This document shows positions 48,410 through 58,710 of a DNA stretch of 64,000 nucleotides, one piece after another (positions within the stretch are counted from its first letter, which is position 1; every line of letters begins with the position of its first letter). The notes under the pieces were generated by a model, which searched no databases, was not told the origin of the DNA, and saw only the letters and a program-made list of their open reading frames with translations. The position numbers and the translations under genes are program-made. This DNA is from Acidimicrobiia bacterium (GTDB lineage Bacteria; Actinomycetota; Acidimicrobiia; Spongiisociales; ZC4RG35): the NCBI GenBank assembly GCA_965203555.1, contig CBDBCY010000004.1, positions 3,076,936-3,140,935 on the forward strand. Reading direction: 5' to 3'.

Positions 48410-48768
48410 GGGGGTGACTTGGATTCGACGTTGAGTGATCGTCGTGTCGGAAGCGAGCCGAGGTTTCCGGTCCCTCGTAAAACAACTGGGTAAACACAAT
48501 AAGTGCCAAACCACAAATGGCGCTGGCTGCCTGATAGATAGGTAGCCCGTCCTGTCCGCTGGGTTCCCGCCCCGCCGGGCCAGGGCGTCGCTAAAGCGGG
48601 ATGCCCCCGGCGGGTTTCCGGGACCGCCGGGCCAAGCCAATTCCGGATGGGCTCGGAAGGAAACGGCTGCCGTGATCCTTCGAGCCGACAACCAACCGGC
48701 AGCTGCGCTCGGAGAATTCGACACGAAGAACTCGGCGGACCGGGGTTCGACTCCCCGCACCTCCACCA
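48410..48768 (+). ncRNA. ssrA: tmRNA; tag peptide (A)AKPQMALAA
   Basis: 5' GGGGGTGA..GGATTCGAC; 3' GGGGTTCGACTCCCCGCACCTCCACCA; ATAAGT-GCC resume site at 48505, tandem stops TGA TAG. Confidence 0.96.
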
Positions 48769-48813
48769 AGAAAGCACTGTTACCCCAGGTCAACAGGCAT
48801 ATAACAATTCTAG

Positions 48814-50613
48814 GAGGCTGCTGAGTATTGGTGTTGGGGTGGTGGTGGGTCACTGGGCTTGATCTCGAAAGCGGCGCGGTGGGCGCGCCGGTTCTTGGGG
48901 GTGGTGGCCGGTGTGCTCCGGTGTTTGTTTGTTCTCTGTTGGGGGTCCCCGGTGTTAGATCGGGTTGGTGGCCCATCCGGTGTTGGTGGGGTGCAGTCCG
49001 AGGTTGATGAGCCTGCGCAGGTTGATCGCCGCTGCGCGGGTGTGTAGTTGTTGCCGGTTTCGGGTGGTGCCCCGGTAGCGGAGTTTGCGGTGGCCGTTGG
49101 CAACCAAGTGAGCGATCAGCCGCTCGACCGTCGGCCGGTACTTGTTGTACCGGTGTTTGGTGGGGGGATCTTTCCATTTTCGGCGGGCTTGGACCAGTAA
49201 CCGGTCATGGGGATGGATCCGCATCTGGCGACCCCGTCGGTTGGTGGTGCAACGACTCCGAAAACCACAACCGGTGCAGTGTTTTGCGAACCGGGCCCAG
49301 CCTTTGGGGCTGATGTTCACCGTTACCCCGGCCGGGCAGGTGATCTGTTTTCGGTCGTGATCCACCTCGAAATCGTCCCGGGTGAACTGGTCACTGCCCA
49401 ACCGATAGTTACCACGCAACGGTATCGGTTTCACAGTGGTGGTATACCCGGCCTTCTTCAACTTGGCGCGAACCTCGCCCGACCCGTACGCCGAATCAGC
49501 GATGACCTCCACACCAGCCGGATCGTCCACACCAGCCGGATCATCCATGCCAGCCGGATCGCCCTGACCAGCCGTTGCGTCTTTTTGCAGCATTCTCGCG
49601 CCGGTCTCCCCGTCGGGGGTATTGGCGGCGGTGACCTCAACGACGGTGATGATCTCCGTCTCCGGCTCGGCCGCTATGTGAGCCTTGTAACCGTCGCGAC
49701 GCTGCGACGATGTTTTGCGTCCGTGACGAGCCTGCGGGTCGACCACCGAGATCGTACGGTCACGGGCCACCCGCCGAGCGATACGCCATCTGCCCTCCCG
49801 GTCGGGGTCCGGTTCCACGTCCTGGCCGACCACCACCCCCAACAACCCCACCGCCTCCGACTGCCCAGCGTCCAAACGGGTGTTTTCCACCGCGTCCAGC
49901 ACCGCCTGCCCATCGGTGACCAACCTGTCGATCAACCCCGAACGACTCTGCGGATCCGACCAATCACACGACGGCTTACCGGCCTGTTCATAATCGCGGG
50001 ACAACCTCACCTGCCGCGCTCGGGATATCAAACGGCGAACCTTGCGTATCTGGAAACAGATCATCGTCACCGTGTCCTGCGTGACCACCGCATCATCCAA
50101 AATCGTAGAGTCCAACACCCGCCTGCGACGACCTCTCAAAATCCCGGTCTCGTCCACCACCTTCCTAACCGCGTCGAAAATCCGCTCCGGTGTCTCACTT
50201 TTGCGTAGTCTCGCCCGCCACAACGTCAACACCGTCGGATGAAACCCCCCATCCACAAGAGACAAACCCGCCGCGGCCTTCCACCGAATATCACACCGCA
50301 ACCGACCCATTCGCCTCCCGATCGGACAGGCCCTCCAAAGCCTGTAACACCATCACCGTCGCCACCACCGACCCCGGCACCGACGGACGGCCCCGAGGGC
50401 CGAACAAATCCTCGAACAACCCATCCGGGAACACCCCAGTCCGATGCTCGGCCAAAAACCGGTAAACCGACCCCTCCGGCACCAGATCACCGCACACCGC
50501 CATCGCGTCCAACAACTCCCGATCAAAACGTTCAACACCCAACATACCCCAAAATTATCCCACAACCCACCCCCCAAACCAAGCATCACCAACCCGAATA
50601 AATCAGCAGCCTC
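48814..50613 (-). mobile_element. IS1182-family insertion sequence
   Basis: Terminal IR GAGGCTGCTGA/TCAGCAGCCTC flanked by CTAG at 48810-13 and 50614-17; encloses the transposase. Confidence 0.85.
48955..50545 (-). pseudogene. IS1182-family transposase, frameshifted at ~50310
   Basis: GRPSVP..LQALEGLSDREA / RLRCDIRWKAA, LDST, DGYKAH, ADSAYG, TCPAG..C..C...C, RPTVER; one extra base separates the two ORFs. Confidence 0.85.
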
Positions 50614-50616
50614 CTA

Positions 50617-51429
50617 GGGCGTGTTCACGCTTTTAGGGTGTCGTGGATGAGGGCGAAGGTGATGAACGTTAGGTAGATGATGTCGAGTTTGTCGAAGCGG
50701 GAGAAGATACGCCGGTAGCCTTTCAGTCGGCGGAAGAGTCGTTCGATTTCGTTGCGTCGTTTGTATATCTTTTGGTTGTATGTCCAGGGGTGTTTGCGGT
50801 TGGTCTTGGGAGGGATGACCGGTTGGTATCCCAGTTGGTGGGCCAACTGTTTGGTTTCGTTACCCTCATACGCTCGGTCGGCGACGAGGAACAGCTGCAA
50901 CTGTTGGTGGCCGATCTTCTGTAGCAGTTTACGACCTGCCGGGGCGTCATGGGCTTGACCTGGGGAAAGAGCGAACGCTATAGCCGTTCGAGCATCCGCG
51001 GCAACCATATGAATCTTGGTGGTCCATCCCCCGCGGGATTTCCCGATCGATTGAGATCCCCCTTTTTTAGGGCGCCGGTCCCGTCGGGATGCACCTTCAC
51101 TATGGTGCTGTCCAGGGAGACTGTTTCCAGTTTGACGCGGATCAACTGTTCTTTTTGCAGCCGTTCGAACACTCGGTCCAGAACCCCGCTTTTGGCCCAG
51201 CGGTTCATGCGCATGTAGATGGTGTGCCATCTCCCGAACCGTTTCGGTAGCCCGCGCCATTTGCAGCCGTGTTCCGCCACGTACAGGATGGCGTTGAGGA
51301 CCTGCAGGTTCGATATCTTGACGTTGCCTCACTGGGTGGGGAAACAGTCCGATATCGGATCATATTGTTCTTGAGTTATCTTCATACGTTAATGATACCA
51401 CACCCCACCCCCACAGTGTGAACAGGCCC
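50617..51429 (-). mobile_element. IS5-family (IS427-like) insertion sequence
   Basis: IRs GGGCGTGTTCAC / GTGAACAGGCCC, each flanked by TA; about 810 bp. Confidence 0.85.
50625..51385 (-). pseudogene. IS5-family transposase: two frames joined at an AAAAAAG site, nonsense codon at 51329-31
   Basis: GCKWRGLPKRFGRWHTIY, SLDSTIVKVH, SRGGWTTKIH, ADRAY, YKRRNEIERLF; PTQ*GNV near the N-terminus. Confidence 0.85.
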
Positions 51430-51705
51430 TAATAGAACAGCACAACCCCGACCACAAACAAGAAGGGTCATGATTTCGCCGGTTGGATGGGGGCAGCCGA
51501 ACTCGGCCTCGACCCAGGGGTATCTGAGCGGGTGGTATGAACTCCCCTTTTCTAGCGGAGGCGACCATCCGCCATATCGGATGTATGATGGCGAGCCACA
51601 TAGTACCCATGGTGACCATCACAGCTTTTGGTAATCCCGCGTCGGCTCAGTAGGCAGCCAACCAAGGGGGGTTGCCCCTCGTTCGGATCTCCTACTATCT
51701 TTGGG

Positions 51706-51999
51706 ATGGTGCCCTTCACAGAAAAGGAAATCCAGCACATATCGAAGGCTGCCTCACCAGATGCTCTGGTGCCGGCCCCTCCAGAGGCCTCGGAGGTGGC
51801 GCATCGCATCGCGGATGCCGCCCTTGACGCCTACACCAAAGAGGACTGGCACTACGTGTTGAATGCCCTTCGCCCGGATCGCGCGGCGACATACATCTCC
51901 AGTCGGCTTCCCGAGGATCGCCCGGCACTCCTCTTGCTGATCGAGTCGCCAAGCCACCGAGCAGCAGTGGAGCGCCACTTAGTTGTCACCGCCGCTTAA
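51706..51999 (+). CDS. Small hypothetical protein, candidate antitoxin
   Basis: 97-aa ORF 12 bp upstream of a toxin-like ORF inside the islet. Confidence 0.5.
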   Translation: MVPFTEKEIQHISKAASPDALVPAPPEASEVAHRIADAALDAYTKEDWHYVLNALRPDRAATYISSRLPEDRPALLLLIESPSHRAAVERHLVVTAA

Positions 52000-52011
52000 C
52001 GGGGCGATCCT

Positions 52012-52284
52012 TTGCCCTTGGGCGTAGCACCCTCTGCCTGCAAACGCGGGGTCGCGTACCATGACGTAATCGCCGTGCTGCATCATCCAGAGTGGGCAAT
52101 GAGCATGCCTGATTTGGCGGAAATCGGCCTCGGTGAGAAAGGCAGACCCAACGTGGATGTTTACGGAGGGTACGACATCAACGATGTGCCACTGGTTGTG
52201 TTCGTAGACAGATTCGAGGAGATGGCTTTTCACTCTGAACCCGGCATACCGAAGTATGAGGAGCTTTATCCCGGCGGGCTATAA
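52012..52284 (+). CDS. Small BrnT/RelE-like toxin candidate
   Basis: SACKRGV..DVIAVLHHP...YGGYD..DVPLVVFV...FHS...KY resembles actinobacterial SARKHGI...GPDRAGNLLEV...IHAM...KY proteins. Confidence 0.55.
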   Translation: MPLGVAPSACKRGVAYHDVIAVLHHPEWAMSMPDLAEIGLGEKGRPNVDVYGGYDINDVPLVVFVDRFEEMAFHSEPGIPKYEELYPGGL

Positions 52285-52558
52285 AGGCACGGGAGATCCG
52301 ATGCCGCCTTAGGCGTCCCCCCAGAAGTGGGTTGCCAGTGTGTGGGCACCCCGTCTTGTGTTGTGGGACACTGTGTGGGATAAGTGGCAGAATATGGCTA
52401 TCTAGCTGGGTGTTCTGTATCCCCGCACCTCCACCATTCTCAGGCTATTTGCCCGGGAGGACAAATTAGGGCAGAGCAAAGTGGCGGAAACTGTCTGGCT
52501 GGGTCTTCTATAATCCCGCGTCCACTCAAAACCACTGGGGAACATGAGGTGAGTTGAA

Positions 52559-53353
52559 TTGGGTGACGTCAGCTTCGATGGGATCGCTGAGGAGTTTGAG
52601 TCCGATATCTACGGTTCCACCAAGGGCGCGGTCCGACTCGCGGTCCTCTGGAGCGTGCTGAACGACAATGTGCCGGCATTGGCTGATCGGCCGATGCGCA
52701 TCCTTGATGCCGGAGGTGGGTCCGGGCATATGGCGGTACGGCTGGCCGGCCTGGGCCATTCAGTGGTCCTGTGTGATATCTCCGAAGAGATGCTCGCCAG
52801 GGCCGCTATAAGAGCCGCGGAGGCCGGAGTCACCGATGCAATCGAGATCCGCCATCTGTCGATTCAGGGGTACGCGAACATCGCAGACTGCAAGTTCGAT
52901 CTCGTTCTGTGTCATGCAGTCCTTGAGTGGCTCGACAATCCGAAGTCTGCCGTTAGAGACCTGGCGCGGTTGGTGAAGCAGGGAGGTCAGGTATCTGTGA
53001 TGTTCTACAACCGTTTCGCTTCGCTCCTCAAGCGGACCCTGGCCGGTGACTTCGAAGCCGCCCTCGGAGACTATCAGACCGGCCCGATCAGGCGGGGGTG
53101 GGGGGAAGGTGCGACCGCCCTGGACAACGAGGTGGTGGTTTCGTGGCTCGAAGAGCAGGGTCTGGAAGTGAGTGCGAAGGCGGGCATCCGGATCTTTCAC
53201 GATCACGTGGTCGACAAACTAGGCGGACCGCGCAGGCTCACTCAGCTCATAGACCTGGAGAAGGCGGTTTGTCGGTCCGAGCCCTTCGCATCCCTCGGTC
53301 AACACACCTACCTCACCTGTCGGCGGGTTGGACTACCTGCAGAGGACGCGTGA
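52559..53353 (+). CDS. Class I SAM-dependent methyltransferase, CmoM/SmtA-like
   Basis: FDGIAEEFESDIYGSTKGAVR, ILDAGGGSG, FDLVLCHAVLEW, SVMFYN, GIRIFHD. Confidence 0.85.
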   Translation: MGDVSFDGIAEEFESDIYGSTKGAVRLAVLWSVLNDNVPALADRPMRILDAGGGSGHMAVRLAGLGHSVVLCDISEEMLARAAIRAAEAGVTDAIEIRHLSIQGYANIADCKFDLVLCHAVLEWLDNPKSAVRDLARLVKQGGQVSVMFYNRFASLLKRTLAGDFEAALGDYQTGPIRRGWGEGATALDNEVVVSWLEEQGLEVSAKAGIRIFHDHVVDKLGGPRRLTQLIDLEKAVCRSEPFASLGQHTYLTCRRVGLPAEDA

Positions 53354-53403
53354 ATCAGTCAGAGACATCAGAGCACAAAACACGACGGATGGAGGACACC
53401 ATT

Positions 53404-53830
53404 ATGCGTGTAGTTGTCGGCTGGATCGTCTTGGGAACGCTGCTCGCCGTCAGCGTGTTGGGTGCAATATCGGCCCAAAACAACCGAGTCGCGATTTGGA
53501 TGGTGCTCGCCGCCGCGGTTGCAGCAGGGCTGGGCGGGATGATCACGGAGGTCGAGTCGGTGCCGAGGAGTGACGGAGAGAGGGTGCTGCTTTCGGTCTT
53601 GAGACCCAATGTTGTCCGTCGCAGCGGGCGTGGCCACCCTCCTGAGCACCATGGTTGCCGGCTGCGATGACGAGGCCGGGGTTCCGAGCTGGGAGCGCTG
53701 CCACACATGGTTGGACACCCCGACCGTCGACTGGCCAGGAGCATCTCTATTCGCACTTGCGCTCGCCCTGGGCGTCGGCTACCTGGTCTGGTGGCTCTTT
53801 GGGAGGGTGTTCCCGGACCGTGTGGAATAG
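53404..53830 (+). pseudogene. Four-TM membrane protein, copy 1, frameshifted at ~53608
   Basis: Aligns with the intact copy at 58120-58548; one extra base in AGACCCAATG. Confidence 0.75.
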
Positions 53831-54072: not shown

Positions 54073-55092
54073 ATGCTTATGGCCGCTGATGGCAGGGACT
54101 CTTTGTTGGCTCATCTCGCCTGGAAGTTCCCCGGGCAGACAGAGACTCTCGCCATCGAGGCGCTCGGCTACATACTCTCCCGGTCGGTTGCTGCTCGAGC
54201 GGCTCTGCGGGAGATGCTCCGAACCGGCGGCGCGGACGTAGCGCCCCTTTGCGGGGTGGCAACTGAGGTCATCGGAGACCAGGACGAGCGTGTGGACCTT
54301 GTCGCTGTTGATGAACGGGGCTCGGAGCGGGTGCTGATAGAGGTGAAATTCTGGGCCGGGCTTACCGACAATCAACCTGAAACGTATTTGTGTCGCCTTC
54401 CAAGAGACGGAGATCCCGCCGTTCTGCTTTTCGTGGCGCCGGAGCAGCGCTTGGTGACACTTTGGGATGAGATCCGCCGTAGGGCAGAAGCGAAGTGGGA
54501 TTTGCGGCCCGACCGGGGCACGGAGGGTCTGAGGAGTGTCACGGTCGATGAGAGCCCACGCCGTTTGATGCTCACGAGTTGGCGGACGTTGCTCGGTGCG
54601 ATGTCGTCGCGCGCCAGCGTAGATGGCGATTCGTCCGCCGAGCGGGACATCCTGCAGTTGGGTGCTCTGTGCGAACGTCAGGACTCGGAGGCTTTCCTGC
54701 CGTTACGTTCGGAGGAGTTCTCGCCGGCGTTCCCGAGACGGATGCTTGACATGTACAGGCTTGTCAATGACGCTACGACACAGGCGAGTCAATGTGAATT
54801 CGTGGATACCACGGGACTCGTATTCGCTGCCAATGCTTTCGGGTTCGGTAGATGGCTTCGGATCGGGAAGGATGGCGCTTGGTTCGTCGCATGGTTCGGC
54901 GTCGACCATAGGCTGTGGAGCCGGGAGAAAGAAACCCCTTTGTGGCTTGTGTTCTCTGATCGGGATGCGGTGAAGGAGAAGCTAGTCAACCCAGATTACG
55001 GATTCACGCTGCCGATCGGCGTGGAATACGATGCAGTACTTGATTCGGTAGTAGGGGGACTGCACGAGATCGCGGAGGCTCTCAGCGCCTGA
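54073..55092 (+). CDS. Hypothetical protein with N-terminal PD-(D/E)xK nuclease-like motif
   Basis: E...RVDLV...VLIEVKFWAGLTDNQPETY (D-ExK-Q-Y pattern). Confidence 0.7.
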   Translation: MLMAADGRDSLLAHLAWKFPGQTETLAIEALGYILSRSVAARAALREMLRTGGADVAPLCGVATEVIGDQDERVDLVAVDERGSERVLIEVKFWAGLTDNQPETYLCRLPRDGDPAVLLFVAPEQRLVTLWDEIRRRAEAKWDLRPDRGTEGLRSVTVDESPRRLMLTSWRTLLGAMSSRASVDGDSSAERDILQLGALCERQDSEAFLPLRSEEFSPAFPRRMLDMYRLVNDATTQASQCEFVDTTGLVFAANAFGFGRWLRIGKDGAWFVAWFGVDHRLWSREKETPLWLVFSDRDAVKEKLVNPDYGFTLPIGVEYDAVLDSVVGGLHEIAEALSA

Positions 55093-55433
55093 GATGTCCC
55101 CAACGAACCTGTGTTTGGGGCGATTTCGAAATGGGCGTGGTTCCAAGCTGCCGGTCAATTGCGATCACGAACCCTCCTGGGTGTCGGTCAGCCTTCCGAA
55201 AGCTCCGATGGCGTCGCCGTACCGGCTGGTTCGGGTTTTCCCGGGGCGCGCCAATATCCCCGCAAAACTTCTATATCCGTTATCAACGCGGTGAAAATTG
55301 CGAAGGCCCCTCATTGAAAATGTGCAGACCCCACCCCGCGATCAGGACAGACTGGACACCCGTTGACGTGCTGGTCAGGGATGGTCGCCGATACACCACT
55401 CAGGCCCAGGCATCCTTATGATCTCTCCGCTGT

Positions 55434-56129
55434 TCAAGGCGCGGGGTTGTTCGTCTTGGACAATGCTGAGGCGAAGAGGCCTGAAGGTACCGCCACGATG
55501 CCCAAACCTATGAGGACCAATAGCATCGCCAGGATTTTGCCTGCCACCGTGTCAGGTGCGATCCCTTCCGCACCCATTGTCAGGGAGGCCACCGACCAAT
55601 AGACACATTCGAAGAGGTTCCCGTAAGCATCGTTCGTTTCGTGCTCAAACTCCCAGATCCCGTACGCAGCAATGAAGGTCATCACCGCCGTCACCCCTGA
55701 GAAGAGCGCCAGTTCGTCTTTTATGTCGTCAAAGGCTTCGGAGAAACGGTCAACCGCTGAACTGTATCGGGCCAGTTTCAACACCCGCAGGGCTCGCAGC
55801 AGACGCAACGGTTTAGCGGCTCCCAACATTTCTATTGACGAAAGACCGGCCACCACAGCCAGCAGATCGACGATCCCATAGAATGATCGAAGGTATCTGA
55901 GAGGGTGAGCGGACGCGAAAATGCGCATCGCATATTCCACGGTGAACAGTACCCAGAAGGTGATCTCGGCACGGTCCAGCCAAACATCGGCCGTGCTCCC
56001 TTCTGTCACGACCGTGTGTAACACCAAAGTGGCCAGAGCCAAGATGACAGTGATTCCCGACGCAGCCTCCGTTAGGCGTCCCACCCGCGTGTCCACATTG
56101 AAGAGTCGCGATCGGAGATTGCCTGACAT
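55434..56129 (-). CDS. 6-TM voltage-gated-type ion channel with non-canonical selectivity filter
   Basis: S2 FTVEYAMR, S3 GIVDLLA, S4 LRLLRALRVLKLARY, pore YWSVASLTMGAEGIAP, S6 GIVAVPSGLFAS. Confidence 0.88.
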   Translation of the reverse strand: MSGNLRSRLFNVDTRVGRLTEAASGITVILALATLVLHTVVTEGSTADVWLDRAEITFWVLFTVEYAMRIFASAHPLRYLRSFYGIVDLLAVVAGLSSIEMLGAAKPLRLLRALRVLKLARYSSAVDRFSEAFDDIKDELALFSGVTAVMTFIAAYGIWEFEHETNDAYGNLFECVYWSVASLTMGAEGIAPDTVAGKILAMLLVLIGLGIVAVPSGLFASALSKTNNPAP

Positions 56130-57310
56130 CAAGTTGATCCCCCTTTGGCTATGAGTTTCATGAAGTGAGTTGCGTCGATTATCGGCAGTCCCCGGTCGCG
56201 GGCCTTGCGGGCCTTGCCGGAGCGGGAACGGACGTCACCTGCTACTACGAGACCGCAGCGCTTGGTTACCGAGTTGACGGGGTGAAGGCCTGCTTGTCGT
56301 GCCAGTTGTTGTAGAGTTGGCCGTCCGATCGGGTCACCGTCCACAGTGGCTTGACCAGTAAAGCAAACGGCCATTCCAGGCGTCAACTCGACAGCCTTCT
56401 CCTCACCGGTCTCGGCCTCTCCGACGAGCCGTTCATCGCCGCCGATTTCCAGTGCGGCAGCTACCTTGTCGTGAAGAACTCGCTCCTCCTCGGTGACCAC
56501 CCCGTCGGCCAGGATTTGTCTAACCAGTCGGTCATAGTACCTCCGGTGTAAATCCACCCGATGCGCTTTGCTCAATTGCAGCGCCCGGGCAGTGGAGGCC
56601 ATCCAGACTTGTTCCTCGTGACTCAGTTCACCGTCGTCTAGGCAACGGTCGAGGGTGTCCAGATACAACACCTCTGCCTCGTTGGTCGTGCGGGGCCAAG
56701 CCGTACGGAGCGCCAGCATGCTCAGCGCGCCTCTCCGGGGTGGAGCGCCGGGTCGTCTAACGGTAAAACCCGTGGAGTCACTGCCCGAGCGGCAAGTTGC
56801 GGGAGCAAAGTTCCCATCCGTCCATTGGCTTGCTCGAGCAAGCAACAGCTGTGCCGAAACCCGGGCGTCGCCCAGAGCAGTGTGATCTGGTTGGACAATA
56901 CCCGCCTGCTGTGCTGCCACTGAGAGCTTTTGCTTCGTTAAGCGATAAGTGCAGATTCCCATCCCCGGATCGAAGGTCATGGTCGGAACCCGCCCAATCT
57001 CTTGACCCAGCATCCTCAGGTCAAAACTGATATTGTGCGCCACCAATACCGCCCCATCCAGGCGCGCGGCGATGTCTCCGGCCACCGATTCGAACTCCGG
57101 CGCCACCTCCAGTATGGAGGGTGTAATGCCGTGAATATGCACCGGACCAGGATCCCGGTTGGGCTGAAGCAGAGTCTCGTACTCCTCCACAATCTCACCG
57201 TCCAAGATTGTCACACACGCGAATTCCACAATCCGATCAGTAGAGAACAGGCCGGTGGTTTCAGTGTCGACTACCGCGATCCTGGGTTGGTTGGCAGGGG
57301 GGCTAAACAT
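56129..57310 (-). CDS. DEDDh 3'-5' exonuclease fused to TerB-like and BRCT domains
   Basis: VDTETTG, AHNISFD, HTALGDA; DDGELSHEE / ADGVVTEEE; VCFTG...SVTKRCGLVVAG...SGKARKARDRG; start may be 57370. Confidence 0.88.
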   Translation of the reverse strand: MFSPPANQPRIAVVDTETTGLFSTDRIVEFACVTILDGEIVEEYETLLQPNRDPGPVHIHGITPSILEVAPEFESVAGDIAARLDGAVLVAHNISFDLRMLGQEIGRVPTMTFDPGMGICTYRLTKQKLSVAAQQAGIVQPDHTALGDARVSAQLLLARASQWTDGNFAPATCRSGSDSTGFTVRRPGAPPRRGALSMLALRTAWPRTTNEAEVLYLDTLDRCLDDGELSHEEQVWMASTARALQLSKAHRVDLHRRYYDRLVRQILADGVVTEEERVLHDKVAAALEIGGDERLVGEAETGEEKAVELTPGMAVCFTGQATVDGDPIGRPTLQQLARQAGLHPVNSVTKRCGLVVAGDVRSRSGKARKARDRGLPIIDATHFMKLIAKGGST

Positions 57311-57688
57311 GTGGTCGAAAGAGTAGTCACTGACTGTGACAGAACATTCCGCATCCCAAATTCCCATCACTGGAGGAACTCAATCCCACCACGGACCACC
57401 GGGTGACTGACCAGTTCACCGAGGACCGGTTCTGTTGGTGGACGATATCCTTGGTTCCAAGTGGACTCTGACGATGTCGGGCGAGAACTTCTGAGTGCAG
57501 GCTCAGTCCGGTCCCGCGCGCCTTAGCCGATGCGGCTGAGATGTCGGTCAAGAGAAGAACGAAACCCCGCTTCGGATTGACGAGGGCCCGGCGAGTGGCC
57601 TTTCACTCTGGGCGGTCCGCTAAGGAAGGGCCTTCCAGGCATCTGCTTGTAACTGGGAGTTGCCTGCTTCGCAATTTGTCGTGAGCGG

Positions 57689-57845
57689 GAACACCGTAGG
57701 AAACAGGTTGCTACCTACCGCGCCGCCATTGTTGAAGCGGCCAAGCGCAGGGGTTTTCGTGGCATCGCTTTGGTCGGTTCCGTGGCACGATGGGAAAACG
57801 AAGCGGACAGCGATGTCGACTTTGTGGTTGGGTGCGAATCGGAAG
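57689..57845 (+). pseudogene. Minimal nucleotidyltransferase (MNT antitoxin) fragment
   Basis: Frame not in the ORF track reads YRAAIVEAAKRRGFRGIALVGSVARWENEADSDVDFVV (GS..DxD); truncated by an IS end. Confidence 0.7.
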
Positions 57846-57900
57846 TGAATCGCCCCGGGTTTCCCGGAGACTTTCTATCTTGAGAGGATATGGAGAATTA
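57846..57900 (+). mobile_element. Orphan left end of an IS3-family element
   Basis: TGAATCGCCCCGGGTTTCCCGGAGACT resembles the IS6110-type IR TGAACCGCCCCGG..CCGGAGACT; no transposase follows. Confidence 0.7.
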
Positions 57901-57901
57901 T

Positions 57902-58710
57902 GGGCATCCGGATTCTCCACGATCACGTGGTAGACAAACTGGGTGGACCGCGGAGGCTCACTCAACTCATAGAGCTGGAGAAGGCGGTTTGTCGGTCCGA
58001 ACTTTTCGCGTCACTCGGTCAACACACCCACCTGATCTGCCGGCGGGTTGGACGCCCTGCAGAGGACGCGTGAATCACTCAGAGTTATCGGAGCGCAAAC
58101 ACGACGGATGGGGACCACTATGCGTGTAATCATCGGCTGGATCATCATGGGCACGCTGCTCGCCGTCAGCCTGCTGGGTGCAATATCGGCTCCAAACAGG
58201 CGAGGGGTCGCGATCTGGGTGGTGATCGGCCTCGCAGTTGCAGCCGGGCTGGGCGGGATGGTCGCGGCGGTCGAGTCGGTGTCCAGGTGTGACGGAAGGG
58301 GACTACTTCTTTCAATCTTGAGACCTCTGTTGTCTGTGGCAGCAGGCGTGGCCACCTTTCTGGGCACGTTCAGAACCGACTGCGATCATGTGGCTGGAGT
58401 TCCGAGTTGGGAGCGCTGCGAAACGTGGTTGGGCACCCCGACCGTCGACTGGCCAGGAGCACCTCTATTGACGCTTGTGCTTGCTCTGGGCGTCGGCTAC
58501 CTGGTCTGGTGGCTCTTTGGGAGGGTGTTCCTAGACCGTTTGGAATAGAGGTCCGGTATAGGTTGTGGAGTTGGCAGAAAGAGACCCCTTTGTGGATTAT
58601 TTTCTCTGATCGGGATGCGGTGAAGGAGAAGCTTGTCGATCCAGATTACGGATTCACGCTGCCGACCGGCGTGGAATACGGTGCGGTATTTTGATTCGGT
58701 GGTAGCGGAA
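57902..58710 (+). repeat. Diverged partial duplicate of 53182-53830 plus ~54908-55060
   Basis: Methyltransferase 3' end, membrane gene and PD-(D/E)xK gene tail recur in the same order with many substitutions. Confidence 0.9.
58120..58548 (+). CDS. Four-TM membrane protein, copy 2 (intact)
   Basis: 142 aa, hydrophobic, with a C..GVPSWERC.TWL loop conserved in both copies. Confidence 0.75.
   Translation: MRVIIGWIIMGTLLAVSLLGAISAPNRRGVAIWVVIGLAVAAGLGGMVAAVESVSRCDGRGLLLSILRPLLSVAAGVATFLGTFRTDCDHVAGVPSWERCETWLGTPTVDWPGAPLLTLVLALGVGYLVWWLFGRVFLDRLE

Follow-up and report, generated by a model that had tools for sequence, protein, structure and literature searches.

A mobile pair of a TerB-BRCT exonuclease and a Kv-like channel with an altered selectivity filter behind a putative DNA-damage promoter in Acidimicrobiia

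In the Hailong system, the nucleotidyltransferase HalB is paired with HalA, a tetrameric channel that depolarises through Na+ inflow (PMC13434031), and in Escherichia coli the DNA-damage-induced membrane protein TisB lowers the proton motive force and leads to dormancy (PMC2826370). The locus described here was found in a window of 64,000 nucleotides (the whole stretch of DNA that was analysed, from contig CBDBCY010000004.1 of the Acidimicrobiia bacterium assembly GCA_965203555.1). It consists of two adjoining genes, one for a DEDDh 3'-5' exonuclease with TerB-like and BRCT domains and one for a Kv-like channel with six transmembrane helices (6-TM) and a rewritten selectivity filter. The module is real, conserved and apparently undescribed, with a function that would resemble Hailong or TisB and with membership of neither. 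Judged from its sequence, the pair suggests an undescribed route of membrane-potential collapse upon DNA damage or virus attack.

The likeness to Hailong lies in a two-gene operon that joins a nucleic-acid enzyme to a tetrameric channel, the tetramer being predicted here. The partner, however, is a DEDDh exonuclease instead of a nucleotidyltransferase making oligo-dA, the channel is a 6-TM protein with a voltage sensor that in its structure model lacks a cytoplasmic ligand crown, and lone channels survive. HalA is not among the top PDB matches listed for the channel, and no large cytoplasmic part is present in the model. TisB is a short peptide under SOS/LexA control that has an RNA antitoxin, whereas the present locus combines a P-loop channel and a nuclease behind a PafBC-type promoter. 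The pore of Chp1 is an unrelated CARF pore (10.64898/2026.08.05.743128).

The likeness to the PafBC/RecA-NDp regulon (promoter background in PMC8223512) consists in a 22-nt tGTC-N-tA(N3)T promoter, a pafABC locus and recA in the regulon. The published PafBC consensus is tGTCgg(N10)tA(N3)T, of which PafB reads the GTC triplet (PMC8635444), and PafBC is activated by single-stranded DNA (ssDNA; PMC11804915). Joint control of damage and defence genes by a WYL activator has been described for DdaA of Moraxellaceae (PMC12392091). The PADLOC family to which the exonuclease belongs, PDC-S48, is one of 145 PDCs that were predicted from their embedding in defence systems and described as untested candidates (10.1101/2024.01.29.577857, Payne et al.), and bacterial NirBac channels with altered P-loops are non-selective (PMC4607889). 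A literature search returned no report of an ion channel in the PafBC/RecA-NDp regulon. Neither the pair nor the filter was found described in the literature within reach, which excluded most subscription papers; the PDC supplement may describe S48. For most bacterial voltage-gated channels no physiological role is known; the voltage-sensor channel at this locus has a conserved partner, a predicted trigger (ssDNA via PafBC) and a naturally selected rewrite of the K+ signature.

A mobile gene pair with a remodelled channel filter

The two genes had been singled out in a preliminary description as a candidate two-gene system, and the unit is indeed conserved, mobile and linked in both gene orders. 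It lies on the minus strand, opposite to the flanking genes, which are on the plus strand on both sides, and the stop codon of the exonuclease gene overlaps the channel ATG (56131-56127) precisely as described. All three proposed domains of the exonuclease are supported by profile or fold matches, and the assignment of a 6-TM channel agrees with a Pfam match to Ion_trans (E 9e-24) and with Kv4.2 as the best fold match. The features of the locus are the following.

56129..57310, minus strand: exonuclease gene (DEDDh 3'-5' exonuclease-TerB-like-BRCT, 393 amino acids, PADLOC PDC-S48 family); open reading frame and domain matches
55434..56129, minus strand: channel gene (6-TM Kv-like, 'GAEG' subfamily, 231 amino acids); open reading frame, Ion_trans and fold match
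56816..57283, minus strand: DEDDh nuclease domain (residues ~10-165); Pfam and fold match
56426..56698, minus strand: TerB-like helical domain with two acidic motifs of the D-G-x5-E type (residues 205-295); profile and PDB matches
56132..56386, minus strand: BRCT domain (residues 309-393); fold match, and Pfam in homologues
56127..56131, minus strand: TGATG stop/start overlap (translational coupling); TGA 56131-56129 over ATG 56129-56127
55767..55814, minus strand: S4 voltage sensor; invariant charges in alignment
55563..55580, minus strand: remodelled selectivity filter T-M-G-A-E-G (canonical relatives T-T-V-G-Y-G-D); alignment
57320..57341, minus strand: PafBC/RecA-NDp-type promoter motif TGTCAC-N10-TACTCT, 22 nt; 9 nt before the exonuclease ATG

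The gene junctions overlap or abut in most of the other exonuclease-first loci inspected as well. Both genes are spanned by a contig of run X1 (54954-57995, 0 differences) and by an X3 contig from a separate study (54556-57577), and RNA run X5 gave short contigs over both genes and likewise over the flanking DNA. An assembly or frameshift artefact behind the filter is ruled out by these independent contigs together with the conservation of the filter in 54 of 59 subfamily clusters.

These 59 clusters form a discrete channel subfamily, which was drawn from the best 120 of 978 homologues and is delimited by E<=9e-63, the next clusters starting at 9e-42. The 54 clusters carry the filter T[M/A]GAEG, as against GYGD in all 61 next-best clusters; GGAEG, GAEN (2), LGAD or no pore are found in the remaining five. 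Compared with TTVGYGD, the filter is one residue shorter, having lost the tyrosine and the aspartate and gained a glutamate. The S1-S6 fold, S4 arginines, pore helix and S6 are shared with KvAP/MVP-type 6-TM Kv channels and with NaK/NirBac channels, whereas the shortened filter without GYG sets the protein apart from both groups and removes the TxGYG(D) sequence of K+-selective Kv channels. The S4 charges R109, R112, R115, K118 and R121 are invariant in 57/57 aligned channels. The GAEG filter appears in 2 of the best 150 representatives of a 50%-identity library, and T[MA]GAEG in none of the solved structures among the matches listed. Only ~14 and ~8 channel residues lie outside the membrane helices in the structure model (pTM 0.54). 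The same genome encodes two further channels, both with GYGD. A search of the ESM Atlas with the channel returned generic Ion_trans clusters only, and no PADLOC model matched it. The channel is predicted to be no longer K+-selective, by its filter and by analogy with NirBac; NaK and CNG channels are further analogues that are not K+-selective. Six other single Kv-like representatives (P0296, P0305, P0316, P0339, P0354, P0381) have non-canonical pore loops, each unlike GAEG.

The nuclease domain matches RNase_T (Pfam, E 1.8e-20) and superimposes on the E. coli epsilon subunit with Z 19.9 and an rmsd of 1.5 over 152 aligned residues; its fold also matches DnaQ, DinG and TREX1. The catalytic D-E-D-H-D set is conserved, with E17, H143 and D148 invariant and D15 and D97 nearly so. 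Pfam TerB is matched over part of its length by 33 of 36 aligned mid-domains at E<=0.05; the domain of the present exonuclease itself scores below the Pfam cut-off, and its best PDB match is the TerB-family protein 2OU3 (E 3.5e-6). An ESM Atlas search with the middle domain gave no match. The C-terminal domain superimposes on TOPBP1 (Z 10.7, rmsd 2.1, 78 aligned residues), and Pfam BRCT is matched by 57/72 exonuclease homologues at E<=0.1. The protein is a full-length member of PDC-S48: its residues 9-388 cover positions 4-406 of the 411 in the PADLOC profile (E 5.5e-89, 297 bits). PDC-S48 is modelled as a single gene, to go by the 'S' in its name, whereas two genes are present here.

The channel was found in 22 distinct Acidimicrobiia genomes, and an intact exonuclease gene adjoins it in 16 of them, upstream in 13 and downstream in three (G914, G928, G932). 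In G086 both genes sit at contig ends, and in G879 the nuclease domain has been lost and the TerB-BRCT half remains beside the channel. The same association was seen in 64 metagenome loci, many of them short and some of the GAEG ones duplicates: the exonuclease is adjacent in 7 of 14 GAEG loci (4 in reversed order) versus 0 of 50 others, and the other seven GAEG loci comprise two loci in triplicate and a truncated one. As an indirect measure, 20/59 GAEG clusters versus 0/61 canonical ones share an equal-sized longest contig with an exonuclease cluster. The channel occurs in 6/401 class-sample genomes and in 1/401 phylum-sample genomes, the latter being this genome itself; source names of the relatives are Acidimicrobiia or Acidimicrobiaceae, and one good holder is listed as a coral metagenome, the small-share runs X4-X6 being excluded when habitat was considered. 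The spread of the exonuclease is patchy (6/101, 9/29 and 12/81). Searches of viral contigs and of plasmids returned no GAEG channel (a single 36% match and two 34% matches, respectively), and the plasmids contained no exonuclease at E<=1e-30. A candidate fusion, the 403-residue P0405, was rejected and reads as a frame-broken read-through of the channel into the exonuclease.

The GAEG channels group in a single clade (FastTree support 0.86). Its deepest split lies between the two gene orders, and the tree places the filter change at the base of the linked clade. Branching of the channel tree mirrors that of the exonuclease tree, with a Spearman coefficient of 0.92 over 20 pairs. A quick exonuclease tree comprised 46 rows, and the approximately unbiased (AU) test was run on 31, 15 rows having been removed as long or redundant; the linked exonucleases may have a single origin, which the test does not reject (AU p 0.38). 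Proteins of the reverse-order clade are only ~43% identical to those of this pair. Both orders are present in family f82 with ~44% identity between them, its exonuclease-first proteins being 67-74% identical to those of this pair, a pattern that does not follow the host-family relationships. Purifying selection acts on both genes: the ratio of nonsynonymous to synonymous substitution rates (dN/dS) is 0.10-0.22 in 12 channel pairs and 0.12-0.27 in 8 exonuclease pairs. DNA similarity to congeners begins at 57343 (or up to ~60 nt inside), extends to ~55445 and ends there, and at two sites where congeners carry the block this genome lacks it, having gaps of just ~45 and ~90 bp. The mobile unit is the promoter with the two genes, and its chromosomal sites differ.

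The PafBC-type promoter motif

A putative PafBC-type DNA-damage promoter, not noticed in the preliminary description, heads the operon. The motif TGTCAC-N10-TACTCT forms the left edge of the block common to congeners and fits the PafBC consensus, including the GTC triplet, in the local form TGTCACA rather than TGTCGG. The exonuclease transcript is predicted to be probably leaderless. A sigma-70 scan returned no promoter, and no SOS-box-like site was present within 3 mismatches between 57200 and 57700. The genes pafA-pafB-pafC are present in this genome, the motif precedes recA here and in 5/5 partner genomes, and a PafC helix-turn-helix was found in 5/5.

In this genome, TGTCACA-N9-TAnnnT is found 20 times, the N10 form 6 times and the N11 form 17 times; spacings 6, 7, 8, 12 and 13 gave 0-1 occurrences, and a reversed control gave 0. 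The N11 sites mostly head one repeated gene family. With a position weight matrix (PWM) built from 48 sites of this genome, a significant motif (p<=0.013) was located ahead of the leading gene in 15/19 intact pairs (12/14 exonuclease-first, 3/5 channel-first), ahead of 2/5 lone channels and ahead of 2/21 lone exonucleases; these counts exclude L018 and L020, for which upstream DNA is missing. In family f7 (L096-L101) the exonuclease stands alone at one site in 6/6 sampled genomes, and two tested members carry the promoter motif 240-300 nt upstream.

Annotation covered nineteen genes downstream of the motif, in 18 regions selected out of 30 listed sites. These genes encode RecA, DnaB, a UvrD-nuclease, TnpB, DUF222-HNH, two SNF2 helicases and Cas3, as well as two DNA methylases, an SMC-like ATPase, DUF5131, DUF4007, DUF6361, one AMP-binding enzyme and four proteins without a match. 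Sites G000:C4 2466729, 1789864 and 2990022 and C2:86582 exemplify the motif before cas3, DUF4007, DUF6361, TnpB and methylase genes. Its position at such genes suggests that defence and mobile genes are widely under damage control.

Proposed function and competing explanations

The favoured reading, to which a probability of about 0.45 is given, is that of an ssDNA- or damage-inducible operon under PafBC, in which the exonuclease would trim ends and a channel not selective for K+ would depolarise the membrane, with arrest or abortive infection as the outcome. The ssDNA arising from DNA damage, an invading phage or a mobile element would activate PafBC and both genes would be transcribed together, the coupling serving mainly co-expression. 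The exonuclease would then trim 3' DNA ends; its BRCT domain would serve for ends or partners and the TerB-like one perhaps for metal or membrane. With its glutamate-bearing filter, the channel tetramer may pass Na+ or other cations including divalent ions and would be gated by voltage and not by the nuclease. The resulting fall in membrane potential would arrest growth, either as dormancy during repair or as abortive infection. Two lone channels have retained the promoter, so PafBC-dependent transcription is the more fitting place for the sensing step. The more specific version, in which a Kv-fold channel has been recruited to a combined DNA-damage and anti-phage response and turned by a newly evolved glutamate-containing filter into a depolarising Na+/Ca2+-permeable pore that works with the TerB-BRCT exonuclease and is ssDNA-triggered via PafBC, is rather doubtful. 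If true, it would add a new filter class to the P-loop superfamily and an electrical arm to the DNA-damage response. GAEG is a new filter for channel biophysics to test, the PDC-S48 candidate gains a concrete two-gene form, and depolarisation by a voltage-sensor channel upon DNA damage or infection becomes directly testable.

Between a role against phages or mobile genetic elements and one in damage dormancy alone, the former is somewhat favoured. Roughly half the loci neighbour type I, IIG or III restriction-modification genes, ietAS, GmrSD-like genes, type I-G Cas genes, SoFic, an SspE remnant or toxin-antitoxin (TA) genes, with defence-gene neighbours at G621, G775, G867, G917, L027, L028, L030 and L077. 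The defence context given in the preliminary description stands in part: the exonuclease is a PDC-S48 protein and many loci lie among defence genes, but those of the same genus sit among housekeeping genes, outside defence islands.

This last point is one of several that weigh against the favoured reading. The defence neighbours were picked by hand and by eye, without a background control, and PDC-S48 membership confers candidate status only, an anti-phage role being predicted. Ion selectivity, and even conduction, are deduced for a predicted channel with a modest structure model. As to the promoter, 4/19 intact pairs are without a significant motif, the TGTCACA form was derived from these loci after inspection, the looser TGTCR-N11-TAnnnT is not enriched (67 versus 62 in the control), and numerous selfish DUF222-HNH genes have the motif in front of them too. 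Since related genomes are not independent samples, part of the congruence of the two trees reflects host descent. Co-occurrence holds from the channel side (16/22 adjacent) and is weak from the exonuclease side, since 17/22 class-sample exonuclease genomes are without the channel; the close relatives G920, G892, G845 and G863 carry the exonuclease and no channel. Adjacency is also missing in 4 of the 22 channel genomes: in G867 the exonuclease is on a different contig, in G918 only its first codons remain by the channel, and in G775 and G855 no full-length exonuclease match was obtained.

Among the alternatives, a non-lethal repair aid survives best, though it is unlikely. PafBC-induced end-trimming or proofreading of the DnaQ-BRCT type would here be accompanied by a channel that adjusts ion flux or voltage, with neither defence nor arrest. 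The mycobacterial DnaQ, a second proofreader, shares the DEDDh domain and the C-terminal BRCT domain (PMC11348249); recA and dnaB lie behind the same promoter type, the best NCBIfam match of the exonuclease is PRK06063 (163 bits against a cut-off of 389), and family f7 keeps a lone exonuclease in all its sampled genomes. The present protein differs from DnaQ in its TerB-like insert, its patchy and mobile distribution and the missing clamp-binding motif, Q[Y/L]ALF being absent in 46 exonucleases whose sequences were trimmed to the profile envelope; for DnaQ itself the clamp motif is dispensable for the antimutator function (PMC11348249). Together with shifting insertion sites and the full-length PDC-S48 match, the insert and the patchy spread are unlike a replisome factor.

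A reversal of roles, with the channel as sensor and the nuclease as effector in a Zorya-like logic, is quite improbable. Depolarisation, for example by phage DNA entry, would move S4 or admit divalent ions through the glutamate ring, and the acidic TerB motifs would relay this to an exonuclease that is switched on or recruited. The S4 charges have remained invariant although the K+ filter was remodelled, and the acidic TerB motifs are conserved; the same motifs are, however, kept by lone exonucleases, only 6 positions distinguish linked from unlinked exonucleases, the genes are separated in G867 and the trigger is already supplied by the promoter. In the trees, each G867 gene is the sister of its G621 counterpart, which indicates that the pair was split in G867 and both genes were kept.

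The preliminary description had proposed that the nuclease senses DNA and gates the channel, and this claim is not upheld. In this model, or in a Hailong-like guard, the nuclease-BRCT protein would bind DNA ends or a nucleic-acid ligand and open the channel or hold it shut, and the cell would die. Translational coupling, co-descent of the genes, the TerB-BRCT half kept beside the channel of G879 and the precedent of a nucleic-acid enzyme guarding an ion channel in Hailong (PMC13434031) all speak for it. Against this, the channel retains a full voltage sensor and has almost no cytoplasmic domain, the exonuclease occurs mostly without a channel, and a search among longer proteins, itself weak, gave no true fusion and a single unrelated-looking match of 1165 residues. 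Lone channels moreover persist at low dN/dS (0.12-0.14 in G918), so the channel is not a toxin dependent on its partner, and direct gating is implausible. A mere passenger linkage of functionally unrelated genes that share a promoter-bearing mobile cassette and are inherited jointly is most improbable: each gene is also found alone and the channel is restricted to a few families within one class, but the adjacency outlasts ~55% sequence divergence and an order swap, with the promoter motif ahead of whichever gene comes first, the filter changed at the base of the linked clade and both genes are under purifying selection.

Genomic surroundings of the pair

The pair lies in the region that follows a tmRNA gene (48410-48768), and the preliminary description had treated this ssrA location as part of the case. 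It is incidental to the module, as congeners carry the block elsewhere, among housekeeping genes. A neighbouring gene for a PD-(D/E)xK protein rests on a weak match (E 0.0028), whereas the remnant of an MNT gene (57653-57880, plus strand) was confirmed by NTP_transf_2 (E 4e-4); the remnant lies on the strand opposite to the pair and does not recur beside it in clustered loci. The supposed TA-like pair at 51628-52284 found no TA match in Pfam, NCBIfam or PADLOC and is unsupported.

After ssrA follow a multicopy DDE transposase element (48810-50621; several genome copies at 92-97% identity) and an IS5-like element (50625-51332). A 15-nt copy of the tmRNA 3' end (48750-48766) is repeated 3.7 kb downstream at 52418-52434, like the att site of an ssrA-integrated element, and the pair lies outside of it. 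A decayed duplication (82-88% identity) flanks the pair in three segments (53182-53838/57902-58556, 54908-55060/58558-58711 and 56759-56808/58709-58758) that comprise the end of a methyltransferase gene, a membrane gene, the end of the PD-(D/E)xK gene and 50 nt of the exonuclease gene, which looks like what a second, related cassette would leave behind after collapse by deletion. In its left copy (53389-53830), the small membrane gene is split by a frameshift, and the X3 and X4 contigs are one base shorter there. A CmoM-like methyltransferase of the same family is encoded near the pair here (52559-53353) and at the reverse-order locus of G914 (L139:2808-3602).

Two further arrangements were seen at other channel loci. 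In G855 (L009:6927-8693), the lone GAEG channel gene overlaps the stop of a Hypoth_Ymh/PD-Lambda-3_B-like gene, a possible alternative partner, and a 23-nt promoter-like motif is located inside the latter gene. At L077:1-1935, an AAA_14-DUF4143 (PDC-S01) gene lies between two copies of the pore-coding 3' end of the channel gene.

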